From: an uncultured Anaerolineaceae bacterium
Lineage (GTDB): Bacteria; Chloroflexota; Anaerolineae; Anaerolineales; UBA4823
DNA: 64,000 bases
Assembly (NCBI GenBank): GCA_964385625.1
Contig: CAYLPS010000005.1
Coordinates: forward strand, 220-64,219
Direction: 5' to 3'
Every line of letters begins with the position of its first letter. The stretch's first letter is position 1. A model generated the notes under the pieces. It saw only the letters and a list, made by a program, of their open reading frames with translations, had not been told where the DNA came from and ran no database searches. Both the position numbers and the translations under genes were made by a program. Below are positions 26,286 through 30,047 of this stretch, in pieces.

Positions 26286-26490
26286 CACTGCCACCTCTTA
26301 CTTCATAGTATAGACTAAATCTTTAGAAATTAGAAGGCTCATTTAACAAGATAGACGGAAAAAAATAGTTCCTTCAGCAGCCTCCTTAAATTAATTATTA
26401 ATGACCTTTAATGGTTTTTACTCCCCGGTACCACGCCAGGCTACCTTTTCGGGTACAATAAACAAAATCTCGGCACCCGGCAGGCATACT

Positions 26491-27357
26491 ATGGAAGAAA
26501 TACCCACACTGGCGATCATTGGCGGCTCTGGGCTGTACGATATGCCCGGGTTGCAAGATATCACCGAGCACGACCTGGACACACCTTTCGGGAAACCCTC
26601 CGCCCCCATCATTAGCGGTGTTCTGGAGGGAAAAAGGGTGGCATTCCTGGCCCGGCATGGCATTGGCCACCACATCTCGCCCTCCGAAATTAATTACCGC
26701 GCCAATATCTACGCCCTCAAGAACCTGGGTGTGGAGCGCGTGGTCAGCACCTCTGCCTGCGGCAGCCTGCGGGAAGATTACACCCCTGGCGACCTGGTGG
26801 TGCCCGACCAGGTGTTCGACCTGACGCGCAATCGCAAGCGTAGCTTCTTCGGCGATGGACTGGTGGCGCACATCGGTGTGGCAGACCCCTTCTGTCCCGA
26901 CCTTTCGAGGCATGTATACCAGGCGGTGAAAGCCACCGGGGCCAGGGTGCACCAGGGAGGTACATTCCTGACGGTGGAAGGCCCGCGCTTCTCCACGAAG
27001 GCTGAGTCGAACGTCTTCCGCTTGTGGGGCATGTCGCTGATCGGCATGACCACCTCCCCCGAGGTGTTCCTGGCCCGTGAGGCTGAGCTGTGCTACAGCG
27101 TGATGGCACACGTAACCGATTATGACGTCTGGCACCAGGAGCTTGAGCCAGTGAGCGTGGAAGCGGTGATCACCGTGCTGAACCATAACACGAAGGTCGC
27201 CCAACAGGCGATAATTAATTTGGCGAAAGCCCTGCCCCGCGAACGCCATTGCAATTGCGAAAATGCCCTGGCCAACACCATCATCACCCAAACAGCCCAC
27301 ATCCCGGCTGAAACCCGCCACAAGCTGGATTTATTGGTGCGCAAATACCTGAGATAA
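26491..27357 (+). CDS. mtnP: S-methyl-5'-thioadenosine phosphorylase
   Basis: Starts at MEEIPTLAIIGGSGLYDMPGL. Also FGKPS, FLARHGIGHHISPSEINYRANIYALKNLGV and STSACGSL, which are typical of MTAP/PNP family 2. The track ORF begins 90 nt earlier. Confidence 0.85.
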   Translation: MEEIPTLAIIGGSGLYDMPGLQDITEHDLDTPFGKPSAPIISGVLEGKRVAFLARHGIGHHISPSEINYRANIYALKNLGVERVVSTSACGSLREDYTPGDLVVPDQVFDLTRNRKRSFFGDGLVAHIGVADPFCPDLSRHVYQAVKATGARVHQGGTFLTVEGPRFSTKAESNVFRLWGMSLIGMTTSPEVFLAREAELCYSVMAHVTDYDVWHQELEPVSVEAVITVLNHNTKVAQQAIINLAKALPRERHCNCENALANTIITQTAHIPAETRHKLDLLVRKYLR

Positions 27358-27365
27358 AACCTGTC

Positions 27366-30047
27366 TTGTCTGACCAGCTAATTTCCACAACCGACCATAC
27401 GGAGCGGCGCCTGCTCATTGTCGCCGGGGCATTTTTGGCAGTGTTTTCATTGGCGCTGACGCTTTCCAACGCAGCCCGCTTACGCAGCTGGCAGGTGGAC
27501 TATCGCTGGTCGCACTGGTTGGGCCTGGCAGTGTGGTTGGCAATCGCCTGGCTGGCCCACCGGCAATTATCCAGGCATTTGCCCAATCGAGATCCATATA
27601 TCTTCCCGGTTGCCATGCTGCTCACAGGTTGGGGCATCCTCACCATGTGGCGCCTATCCGATGTGTATGGCATTCGCCAGGTTGCCTGGCTGCTATTGAT
27701 TGGCATGCTGGTGCTCTTGGCGTTGCATTATGACGGCCAGGTGAGGGGTGGAAGGATTTTATTCCAGTTGCGGCGTTTCAAGTACATCTGGCTCACCAGT
27801 GGGCTGTTGCTCACCGCAGCGACGCTTTTCCTGGGGACGAACCCGCTTGGTGCAGGCCCGCGCTTATGGCTGGGATGCTGCGGGATTTACTTCCAGCCAT
27901 CCGAGCCGCTCAAGCTGCTGCTGGTGATATACCTGGCAGCTTATCTGGCAGATCGCCAGGCTTCACCCAACCTACCCACCAGGCTGCTGCCCCTGTTAGC
28001 CCCCACCCTGGTGATGACCGGCATCGCCTTGCTGCTGCTGGTGTTCCAGCGCGACCTGGGCACGGCGATGATCTTTATTGCGCTTTATGCGGTGATCATA
28101 TTCAGCGGAACGGGTAATAAAAAGGTGTTTTTAGCGGGATTTGTTGTGCTGATCGTGGCGATGGTGGCCGGTTACCTGCTGTTTGATGTGGTAAGCCAGC
28201 GCGTGGATGCCTGGATCAACCCATGGATCGACCCGGCCGGGGGTTCTTACCAGATCGTCCAATCGTTGCTGGCAGTGGCGAATGGCGGCTTGCTGGGGCG
28301 CGGCATAGGCATGGGCAGCCCCAGCCTGGTGCCAATTGCCCAATCAGATTTCATCTTTTCGGCAATCAGCGAAGAGACCGGGTTGCTGGGGGCGGTGGGC
28401 ATCCTGGCATTGCTGGCGGTGCTGGTGAACCGCGGTATGCGAATGGCTCTAAGGTCTACAGATACTTTTCAACGCCTGCTAGCGGTTGGGTTGGTGGCCC
28501 ACCTGGTGGGGCAAAGTATCTTGATCATCGCCGGCAACCTGCGCCTGTTACCCCTCACCGGAGTGACCCTGCCCTTCGTATCCAGTGGAGGATCCTCGCT
28601 GCTGGTATCCTTTTTTGAGCTGCTATGCCTGCTGTTGATTGGAGCCAGCCAGCAGGAAGACCCGGTTTTCCAGCCAGCCCAGCTGAAAGCTCAAACCGGG
28701 CTCATCCGCTTGCTCTCAGTTGTGATGACAGCAGGATTGCTGGGATGCACCTTGGCTGTTGGTTGGTGGAGCTTGGTGCGCGCGCCCGCCCTGCTCAGCC
28801 GCTCCGACAACCCCCGGCGTTCCATTGCCGATCGCTACGTGAAACGTGGCACGATTTTTGACAGCCGCGGGAACATCCTGGCCGAATCCACCGGCATCTC
28901 GGGCAGCTTCTACCGCCATTATCCCTATTCGGCACTCGGCCCGCTGCTGGGATACACCGACCAGGCATATGGGCAAGCCGGGTTGGAAGCCAGCCTGGAC
29001 CTGTACCTGCGCGGATTGCAAGGTTACCCAACATTGACCATGTGGTGGCAGAACCTGCTTTACGGCCAACCACCTCCAGGACTGGATGTGCGCTTGAGCC
29101 TCGACCTCGATTTACAACGCACTGCAGACAATATGCTGACAGGTCAGCGGGGAGCCGCTGTGCTGCTGAACGCTGCCACGGGTGAGGTGCTGGTTTTCGC
29201 ATCCAGCCCCACCTTCGATGCCAACCAGCTGGCAGCTAATTGGGACCGGCTGGTCAATGACCCCTCAGCACCGCTCTTCGACCGAGCTGCGATGGGCTTG
29301 TACCCACCCGTGAATGCCATGGGGGTATTCTTGCTCGCCGCTAGCCAGGTAGATCCTTCAAGCCAATTCGACGGCACCGACTTTTCCGATTGTGTTACGG
29401 TCGCCACAGGGCATAGCTGGGCAGGCGTGATTTCTGCCGGGTGCAGCGCGCCTGTCAGGCTTCTGTTGAGCTCGATGAGCAGCCAGCAGCTGGTGGATTT
29501 TCTGGACAGAATGGGGTTTTACACAGCCCCCACTTTCCCGGTGGAAGCGCTCTCCTCCAGCATCCCTGAGAGCCTGACGGCAGCCTATTCCTACCTTACC
29601 GGTGAGCAAGCGGGGCCTGGCGGGCAGGATGCACTCAAGGTGAGCCCCCTACAAATGGCATTGGCAGCGGCCGCGCTTAGCAACGGAGGGCAAATGCCTG
29701 TCCCGCGACTGGCAGTAGCCGTGGATACCCCTCTGGCGGGCTGGGTGATGTTACCCTCCGAACAGGATGCACAACAGGAGCTGGAAATTTCATCCACCAG
29801 CAGTGTTGTGCAGGCCTTGCTGGCTGATGACCTGCCCATCTGGCAATCAGTGGCCTCCTGGGGTGGTGCTTCAGCCCCTGATGGTGCGGAAAATGATGGC
29901 TCGAAGGGCTTTTCCTGGTACCTTGGAGGCACCTCCGGTGATTGGAAAGGCGCTCCACTGGCGGTGGCAATCTTATTGGAGGAAAATAATCCCGGCCTGG
30001 CACAAGATATCGGACAGCGCCTATTCCAGCAAGCCATGTATCCATAA
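27366..30047 (+). CDS. SEDS (FtsW/RodA-type) peptidoglycan polymerase fused to a class-B PBP-like domain lacking the catalytic motifs
   Basis: 893 aa with a TTG start. SEDS motifs are intact: QPSEPLKLLLVIYLAAYL, RDLGTAMIF, SDFIFSAISEETGLLG, PLTGVTLPFVSSGGSSLL. An extra TM follows (aa 445-470), then a PBP pedestal and transpeptidase-like fold: RGTIFDSRGNILA, AAVLLNAATGEVLVFASSPTFDAN, VSPLQMALAAAALSNGG. Confidence 0.85.
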   Translation: MSDQLISTTDHTERRLLIVAGAFLAVFSLALTLSNAARLRSWQVDYRWSHWLGLAVWLAIAWLAHRQLSRHLPNRDPYIFPVAMLLTGWGILTMWRLSDVYGIRQVAWLLLIGMLVLLALHYDGQVRGGRILFQLRRFKYIWLTSGLLLTAATLFLGTNPLGAGPRLWLGCCGIYFQPSEPLKLLLVIYLAAYLADRQASPNLPTRLLPLLAPTLVMTGIALLLLVFQRDLGTAMIFIALYAVIIFSGTGNKKVFLAGFVVLIVAMVAGYLLFDVVSQRVDAWINPWIDPAGGSYQIVQSLLAVANGGLLGRGIGMGSPSLVPIAQSDFIFSAISEETGLLGAVGILALLAVLVNRGMRMALRSTDTFQRLLAVGLVAHLVGQSILIIAGNLRLLPLTGVTLPFVSSGGSSLLVSFFELLCLLLIGASQQEDPVFQPAQLKAQTGLIRLLSVVMTAGLLGCTLAVGWWSLVRAPALLSRSDNPRRSIADRYVKRGTIFDSRGNILAESTGISGSFYRHYPYSALGPLLGYTDQAYGQAGLEASLDLYLRGLQGYPTLTMWWQNLLYGQPPPGLDVRLSLDLDLQRTADNMLTGQRGAAVLLNAATGEVLVFASSPTFDANQLAANWDRLVNDPSAPLFDRAAMGLYPPVNAMGVFLLAASQVDPSSQFDGTDFSDCVTVATGHSWAGVISAGCSAPVRLLLSSMSSQQLVDFLDRMGFYTAPTFPVEALSSSIPESLTAAYSYLTGEQAGPGGQDALKVSPLQMALAAAALSNGGQMPVPRLAVAVDTPLAGWVMLPSEQDAQQELEISSTSSVVQALLADDLPIWQSVASWGGASAPDGAENDGSKGFSWYLGGTSGDWKGAPLAVAILLEENNPGLAQDIGQRLFQQAMYP

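Follow-up and report, generated by a model that had tools for sequence, protein, structure and literature searches.

A SEDS polymerase fused to a PbpA-type module without transpeptidase motifs in the Anaerolineae

The stretch of DNA analysed here (the window; 64,000 nucleotides of contig CAYLPS010000005.1, from an uncultured Anaerolineaceae bacterium) carries an open reading frame (ORF) whose product joins a SEDS (FtsW/RodA/SpoVE) polymerase to a class B penicillin-binding protein (PBP; bPBP) in one chain. An initial annotation had claimed that the three catalytic motifs of the PBP part are degenerate, so that the enzyme would polymerise glycan without being able to cross-link it. This locus therefore raises the question of whether the motifs are really lost, whether the loss belongs to one assembly or to a lineage, and what a PBP without its chemistry would be kept for. 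We found that all three motifs are lost and that the loss extends through the relatives of this protein in the Anaerolineae; the result is a family-level one and is not peculiar to this window. Because the dead partner has been kept by a whole lineage, it is probably a built-in activator or scaffold and not an enzyme.

Domain architecture and catalytic motifs

Pfam searches, alignments to PDB chains and hhalign indicated that the single chain consists of an intact-looking SEDS polymerase, the anchor helix of a bPBP and a PbpA-type module, in agreement with the initial annotation. An identical protein is already on record. PF01098 (SEDS) matched residues 101-424 (E 3e-68; 230.8 bits vs a cut-off of 26.4) and PF21922 (PBP_dimer_2) matched residues 494-575 (E 2.5e-8). 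The match of PF00905 (Transpeptidase) to residues 596-809 was weak and partial, covering profile positions 1-204 of 299 (E 3e-10). The layout of a bPBP, from anchor helix through non-catalytic pedestal to penicillin-binding fold, is present. The AlphaFold2 (AF2) model that had been proposed as a check was built on 104 homologues (mean pLDDT 83, pTM 0.63) and comprised a helical membrane domain, a long continuous helix at residues 437-471 and a well-folded periplasmic module, with pLDDT mostly above 85 in the penicillin-binding fold. A short cytoplasmic linker (428-446) precedes the extra transmembrane helix, which is the counterpart of the N-terminal membrane anchor of bPBPs and is positioned where the separate PBP gene starts in unfused relatives. 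Foldseek confirmed the PbpA-type fold; its best matches were the Coriobacteriia structures 4mnr, 4n1x and 4jbf and M. tuberculosis PbpA (3upo, 3un7), with TM-scores of 0.72-0.77 on the target. When the C-terminal half was searched against PDB sequences, the best matches were the fused 'peptidoglycan glycosyltransferases' of Eggerthella and Atopobium (4MNR, 4JBF, 4RA7, 4N1X), and PBP2/MrdA and M. tuberculosis PbpA ranked after these chains.

The positions of the transpeptidase motifs were fixed by HMMER alignment to the PDB chains 4mnr, 4jbf and 8zpc, by global hhalign of the family profile against ten active Coriobacteriia relatives (Prob 100, E 1e-57), and by hmmalign of at least 150 genome-derived relatives. 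All three approaches agreed. At the SxxK motif, PGSTFK of the active proteins was aligned to PVNAMG, with N650 in place of the serine and G653 in place of the lysine. At the SxN motif, hhalign placed SSN at G692-C693-S694, which bears out the earlier reading of this region as GCSAP; the codons of C676 and C693 lie at 29391-29393 and 29442-29444. At the KTG motif, GKTGT was aligned to about W832-G-G-A-S836, and the adjacent loop (835-846) had a pLDDT below 50. Within I825-K847, W826 was invariant and Q827 nearly invariant among the 104 homologues, while the remainder was hypervariable and contained indels. K847 (in K-G-F) is the only lysine in the beta-3/beta-4 region, and it is not conserved.

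All of the peptides quoted in the initial annotation are present (29310-29324 encodes V649-G653 and 29922-29939 encodes L853-G858), and Pfam, HMMER alignment to PDB chains and hhalign upheld its claim that all three motifs are lost from the domain. One assignment had to be corrected. The peptide LGGTSG (853-858), which had been taken for the KTG box, aligns with the next strand, WF(I/V)G, of active relatives, about 20 residues too far downstream. The conclusion that the KTG motif is lost is unaffected by this misplacement, because no K-[ST]-G was found within residues 820-860. An intact SxxK, SxN or KTG motif elsewhere in the PBP domain, the finding that had been named as fatal to the claim, was also sought, and none was found in residues 590-893.

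The N-terminal half was matched by phmmer to E. coli RodA (8tj3_B), FtsW (8p1u/8bh1) and T. thermophilus RodA (6bar), with E values of about 1e-26 to 1e-28. Its scores missed the NCBIfam equivalog cut-offs for both ftsW (232 vs 337.5) and rodA (192 vs 336.7), and it is therefore neither a canonical FtsW nor a canonical RodA. E180 and K183 were aligned with the E and K of the QPSEIAK motif of E. coli RodA, which we take to be E114 and K117. D230, in QRDLGTA, was aligned with the aspartate of AQPDLGTS, presumably D159, and the counterpart of D328 is, as we assume, D262, the essential SEDS aspartate. Q177, P178, S179, E180, K183, D230 and D328 were invariant among the 104 homologues. The aligned motif residues are essential in characterised SEDS proteins. 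FtsW activity requires the invariant SEDS aspartate (10.1101/358663). The SEDS half thus looks active, and we infer polymerase activity from the catalytic residues that it has kept.

Table 1. Features of the fused gene and the gene upstream of it (positions in the window)
Feature	Position	Strand	Basis or remark
ORF: SEDS polymerase fused to PbpA-type pseudo-transpeptidase	27366..30047	+	TTG start, 893 aa
SEDS (FtsW/RodA/SpoVE) glycosyltransferase domain, residues 1-430	27366..28655	+	PF01098, PDB matches, AF2
QPSEPLK motif, Q177-K183	27894..27914	+	aligned to E. coli RodA QPSEIAK
D328 in QSDFIF	28347..28349	+	aligned to Asp of E. coli RodA HTDFIF
Extra transmembrane helix, about residues 447-471	28704..28778	+	AF2
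PbpA-type pedestal (PBP_dimer_2), about residues 472-590	28779..29135	+	PF21922
Penicillin-binding (transpeptidase) fold without catalytic motifs, residues 591-893	29136..30044	+	PF00905, Foldseek, AF2
Motif 1 (SxxK) remnant, Y646-P-P-V-N650-A-M-G653	29301..29324	+	active relatives Y-A-P-G-S-T-F-K (more generally Y-x-P-G-S-T-F-K)
C676 ... A691-G692-C693-S694, motif 2 (SxN) remnant	29391..29447	+	hhalign
Former KTG strand and following loop, I825-K847	29838..29906	+	hhalign, AF2, homologue conservation
W851-Y-L-G-G-T-S-G858, conserved strand after KTG position	29916..29939	+	aligns with WFIGT/WFVGF of active relatives
MTAP-like phosphorylase gene (PNP_UDP_1)	26401..27357	+	PF01048, E 8e-48; ends 9 nt before the ORF

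Distribution and phylogeny of the motif loss

We searched 5.8 billion proteins for homologues and obtained more than 1,358 matches, of which the best 120 were examined. All of these 120 were of the Anaerolineales/Chloroflexi type, and every full-length one was fused. Among the 104 full-length homologues, the position of the SxxK lysine was occupied by G in 92, A in 6, D in 3, S in 2 and E in 1, and never by K, while the position of the nucleophilic serine was occupied by N in 67, A in 12, T in 10, S in 9, P in 2 and Y in 1. In these full-length, long-form proteins C676 was found in 104/104, and G692 and C693 were each found in 103/104. In addition, a HMMER scan of 1.84 billion 50%-identity cluster representatives with residues 470-893 gave 317 matches with E <1e-30. 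The SxxK lysine was absent from all of the best 150 of these 317 representatives, down to 33% identity, and these 150 include unfused proteins of about 450-470 aa.

The lysine was likewise absent at every Anaerolineae genome locus examined, and the dead state was found in named Anaerolineales, Aggregatilineales, Ardenticatenaceae, Caldilineaceae and Thermoflexales metagenome-assembled genomes. Among 300 sampled genomes of the phylum, the fused dead ORF was present in 27/27 genomes of the same order. The motif loss is a fixed character of the family, neither a local accident nor chance. The possibility that the fusion and the degeneracy are private to this assembly was rejected, as both were found in homologues and in independent assemblies from the same order. 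A short form of the fused protein, of about 805-840 aa, was also observed (e.g., loci L016, L019, L020, L024, L036 and L097-L118) and is typical of one family within the same order. Some 90 residues are missing from its head, among them both cysteines and the remnant of SxN; its pedestal and last strands remain.

The intact motifs are found in other relatives. PGSTFK, S(S/A)N and GKTGT are all present in the Coriobacteriia fusions and in an unfused actinobacterial pair. The phylum sample contributed about 39 other Chloroflexota homologues, all unfused, in which the motifs read PGS[TV]FK, S[CSDV]N and GK[TS]GT. Many of these active Chloroflexota relatives read S-C-N at the second motif, so C693 was probably inherited.

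To compare the history of the loss with that of the fusion, a maximum-likelihood tree of 89 PBP modules was built, in which the module of the window was grouped with the PbpA-type proteins of Chloroflexota and Coriobacteriia. The distinction between active and dead modules required one change, all 48 active rows lying on one side of a branch with SH-aLRT support of 99. The distinction between fused and unfused modules required at least four changes, and the Coriobacteriia fusion was separated from the Anaerolineae fusion with a support of 100. Moreover, seven unfused relatives (L064, L067, L071, L074, L078, L119 and L121) carry the same dead motifs. Because such unfused dead relatives exist and the numbers of changes differ (one vs at least four), the loss of catalysis and the fusion were separate events. 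In five of the unfused dead relatives (L064:7234-7239, L067, L071, L074:7153-7158 and L078:7261-7266), the stop codon of the SEDS gene abuts the start codon of the PBP gene in the same frame (TAG ATG, TAA ATG or TAG GTG). Judging from these junctions, a single substitution would fuse the two genes, which fits the four or more fusion or fission events on the tree.

A probable non-catalytic partner and the alternatives

What a dead module is kept for was approached through the constraint acting on it. The conservation of the majority residue among the 104 homologues was 0.81 in the SEDS domain, 0.82 in the pedestal and 0.58-0.68 in the head. Since the nearest relatives with available DNA (L011 and L012) are only 62-66% identical and synonymous sites would be saturated, domain-wise identity was used instead of dN/dS, and identities were compared between pairs with matched SEDS divergence (about 63% identity). 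At this divergence, the pedestal and the head were 65% and 44% identical in the dead clade, and 51% and 48% identical in the active Coriobacteriia fusions. These values suggest that the dead head is barely less constrained than an active head and that its pedestal is more constrained.

The capacity of the genome to cross-link by other means was also surveyed in the assembly (3.84 Mb, 93% complete), as the initial annotation had recommended. A canonical mreB-mreC-mreD-PBP2-RodA operon was found at C44:13828-19678 and a dcw cluster with ftsI and ftsW on C37. Given these elongasome and divisome copies, the gene in the window is a third, accessory SEDS system, and the earlier remark that it has implications for how the organism cross-links its wall was an overstatement. 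In addition, there is an orphan bPBP at C9:28974-31316 (+) with MecA_N and PBP_dimer domains and the motifs GSVFK, SCN and KTGTAE. Its N-terminus is lipobox-like (..LFGC) and takes the place of a clear membrane anchor. It has no SEDS gene as a neighbour and is a candidate for a trans-acting cross-linker. Transpeptidases with a possible role in trans are therefore at hand: all three of the other bPBPs carry GSVFK, S(L/C/S)N and KTGTAE, and two YkuD LD-transpeptidases are encoded on C16 and C84.

We consider it probable that the protein is a glycan polymerase with a covalently tethered dead PbpA, in which the anchor helix and pedestal activate the SEDS domain and other enzymes make the cross-links. 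Under this scenario, the SEDS half would polymerise lipid II into glycan, while the PbpA half would be a pseudoenzyme that forms no acyl-enzyme and hence would neither cross-link nor bind beta-lactams. The dead half would be kept since a SEDS polymerase needs a bPBP partner non-catalytically: the membrane helix and pedestal of the partner would bind to the polymerase and thereby activate it, the head that remains would be a scaffold or contact surface, and the strands would be cross-linked in trans by the three active bPBPs and the two LD-transpeptidases. Three steps of this scenario are inferred: glycan synthesis by the SEDS half, its activation by the dead partner, and cross-linking by enzymes in trans. 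A tethered, non-catalytic pedestal or activator had already been proposed in the initial annotation, and this idea fits both the pattern of conservation, high in the SEDS domain and pedestal and lower in the head, and a precedent in engineered bPBPs (PMC12713402). In B. subtilis, catalysis by PBP2b is dispensable while the protein is essential, presumably as an activator of FtsW, and in C. difficile, asymmetric division can still proceed with SpoVD S311A as long as the cell also has SpoVE and PBP3 (PMC12713402).

Several observations weigh against this scenario. A mere spacer would not call for the level of conservation seen in the head. Residues at the former active site are conserved among the homologues (G649, N650, L652, G653, G692, C693, W826 and Q827), and the cysteines C676 and C693 are invariant or nearly so; a C676-C693 disulfide is possible. 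This pattern hints at a remodelled functional site, which pure 'activator' logic does not explain. A serine is retained at the nucleophile position in 9/104 homologues. The inventory of synthases is a lower bound, because the assembly is 93% complete. Furthermore, the FhaA and FhaB genes, which lie upstream of the SEDS gene in most relatives, are not adjacent to it in this genome; they were found on contig C120:6393-7670 (-), with unrelated genes after them.

The conservation at the former active site leads to a first alternative, which we regard as unlikely while giving it some weight, namely that the head has acquired a new function: its remodelled cleft would still bind peptidoglycan stem peptides, another ligand or a protein, and the head would gate the polymerase or bring in trans-acting cross-linkers in a sensing or targeting role, and would not be a passive scaffold. 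The conserved residues sit at the former motif positions, the two cysteines are nearly universal in the long form, the rate of evolution of the head is close to that of active heads, and the PP2C and PASTA kinase genes are gone from the clusters of the dead clade (10/10 vs 1/52 loci), so that regulation could have moved elsewhere. However, the short variant drops both cysteines and the SxN remnant, which means that the site is not universally needed, and the loop of the KTG strand is hypervariable. In a fuller version, equally an outside chance, the head would be a repurposed extracytoplasmic sensor or adaptor whose rebuilt cleft (G-N..L-G, G-C, W-Q and the possible C676-C693 disulfide) binds stem peptides, nascent glycan or a partner protein, for example the lipoprotein-like orphan bPBP or an LD-transpeptidase. 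The third SEDS machine would then polymerise under ligand control and hand cross-linking to a separate enzyme, and repeated fusion by loss of the SEDS stop codon would fix a 1:1 unit of polymerase and regulator.

Continued transpeptidase or related acyl-transferase activity of the domain based on non-canonical residues, such as C693 as nucleophile or a residual serine, is very improbable. C693 is present in 103/104 homologues in the old SxN loop at the active-site cleft, where the cysteine-based LD-transpeptidases offer an analogy, and the nine homologues with a serine could be cited as well. However, the general-base lysine is absent in every member and the nucleophile position varies among N, A, T, S, P and Y; in the oxyanion/KTG strand there are indels, and neither a K nor a T/S-G is conserved; and C693 goes back to the middle position of an ancestral S-C-N, is thus no new residue, and is deleted in the short variants. 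Finally, that the PBP half is a functionless, decaying remnant or the fusion an artefact of assembly or gene calling is hardly credible: the weak, partial PF00905 match and the lower conservation of the head relative to the SEDS domain and pedestal would be in its favour, but more than 100 protein clusters and 27/27 independently assembled genomes of the same order preserve an intact frame, AF2 predicts the fold with confidence, identity within the head is 44% vs 48% in active heads, and unfused relatives keep the dead module as a separate gene abutting the SEDS stop codon.

Apart from the bPBPs, only one GT51 (PF00912) protein was found in the assembly, a PBP1C-like protein at C157:2585-5494 (-) with BiPBP_C and Big_7 domains. 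It has no PF00905 match; compared with PBP1a (4OON), AILS stands in place of SSFK and KTS in place of KTG. By eye, its first glycosyltransferase motif, EDxxFxxHxG, reads LDHGFWRHGG, with Leu in place of Glu. To judge from these motifs, the class A PBP homologue may also be catalytically degenerate.

Known systems and gene neighbourhood

The initial annotation had set the fused chain apart from the usual separate polypeptides. The single-chain fusion is real, but it is not new, since SEDS-bPBP fusions have been crystallised since 2013-2014 (4MNR, 4JBF) and catalogued (PMC12516126). The closest known system is the Coriobacteriia SEDS-PbpA fusion, whose solved transpeptidase domains include those of Eggerthella lenta (4MNR) and Atopobium parvulum (4JBF, 4N1X, 4QJG, 4R0Q and others). 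These proteins have the same order in one chain (SEDS, transmembrane helix, PBP_dimer_2 pedestal and penicillin-binding fold), give the best sequence and fold matches, and have the FhaA-FhaB neighbourhood in common with relatives of the present gene. Unlike the present protein, they have intact motifs (PGSTFK, S(S/A)N and GKTGT), and the entry titles describe crystals of beta-lactam acyl-enzymes. In addition, their flanking genes are PP2C and a PASTA kinase and not MTAP, their fusion is of independent origin, and their identity to the present protein is about 30%. A 2025 survey counted 117 'bifunctional bPBPs', e.g., a 931-aa protein of Senegalimassilia (PMC12516126). In the parts of that survey available to us, SEDS-bPBP fusions are treated as bifunctional and no loss of catalytic motifs is mentioned. 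The present protein, with PF01098 and PF00905 in one polypeptide, fits the InterPro-style definition of that survey (PMC12516126); in terms of catalytic activities it is at most monofunctional, as its transpeptidase motifs are absent.

The actinobacterial RodA-PbpA pair (M. tuberculosis PbpA, 3UN7/3UPO) has in common with the present protein the PF21922 pedestal, the fold (TM-score about 0.73-0.75) and, in relatives, the synteny with FHA genes. It consists of two polypeptides with an active, beta-lactam-binding PbpA, and a kinase and a phosphatase are present in its cluster (fhaA-fhaB-pstP-rodA-pbpA-pknA-pknB), whereas here the FHA genes lie on C120. The RodA-PBP2 and FtsW-FtsI complexes (6PL5, 8TJ3, 8BH1) follow the same two-component logic with the same SEDS catalytic residues; however, they are formed by separate chains with an active transpeptidase, and this genome has its own copies of them (C44, C37). 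The engineered inactive bPBPs (B. subtilis PBP2b, C. difficile SpoVD S311A; PMC12713402) also illustrate a bPBP that is required by or useful to its SEDS partner without chemistry while another enzyme cross-links, as we propose for the present protein. They are laboratory point mutants of otherwise intact active sites, whereas here all three motifs were lost naturally, parts of the head were remodelled or deleted, and the state is fixed across a lineage.

Full-text literature searches did not turn up any account of a naturally dead, conserved bPBP partner, and they yielded nothing on pseudoenzyme PBPs or on PBP/FtsW of the Anaerolineae. As far as the searched literature goes, the SEDS-bPBP fusion was already known and the naturally dead, conserved partner is the new part. 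The model in which a bPBP has two separable jobs, cross-linking and allosteric activation of SEDS, has so far rested on laboratory point mutants; a large, old lineage that removed the chemistry and kept the protein, mostly welded to the polymerase, provides natural evidence for it. The family also offers material for study: a single-chain SEDS-pedestal without transpeptidase background, long and short heads, unfused dead forms, and fused active relatives. Genome surveys that count PF00905 or 'bifunctional bPBP' architectures overestimate the transpeptidase content of Chloroflexota, and the present SEDS machine, with its dead partner, would be intrinsically blind to beta-lactams.

The gene neighbourhood links the active and the dead relatives. 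The order in Coriobacteriia is kinase, FhaA, FhaB, PP2C, the SEDS-PbpA fusion and PASTA kinase, and that in Chloroflexota, active or dead, is FhaA, FhaB, often an MTAP-like PNP_UDP_1 gene, and then SEDS and PbpA. FhaA/FhaB were found upstream in 45/52 dead-clade loci and in most active Chloroflexota loci. PP2C and kinase genes were present in 10/10 Coriobacteriia/actinobacterial loci and a kinase in 1/52 dead-clade loci; neither a PP2C phosphatase nor a Ser/Thr (PASTA) kinase was found within the window. The common cluster, FhaA-FhaB-(MTAP or PP2C)-SEDS-PbpA, indicates orthology with the active relatives, and the gene is best explained, by sequence and synteny, as the Chloroflexota orthologue of the RodA-PbpA pair in the form of a single chain.

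The MTAP-like gene was found directly upstream in 44/52 loci of the dead clade, and several Chloroflexota loci whose PbpA is active have it there as well. In this genome, it is the only gene of the conserved cluster that remains adjacent to the SEDS gene. Since the FhaA-like (FhaA_N and FHA) and FhaB-like (FHA) genes are on another contig, followed by unrelated genes, the FHA cluster is broken in this lineage. Upstream FhaA/FhaB genes are likewise missing from L011 and L012, the closest relatives. The MTAP-like gene, recorded at loci L011-L074, L124, L129, L130, L135, L136, L144, L148 and L158, occupies the place of PP2C in the Coriobacteriia clusters.

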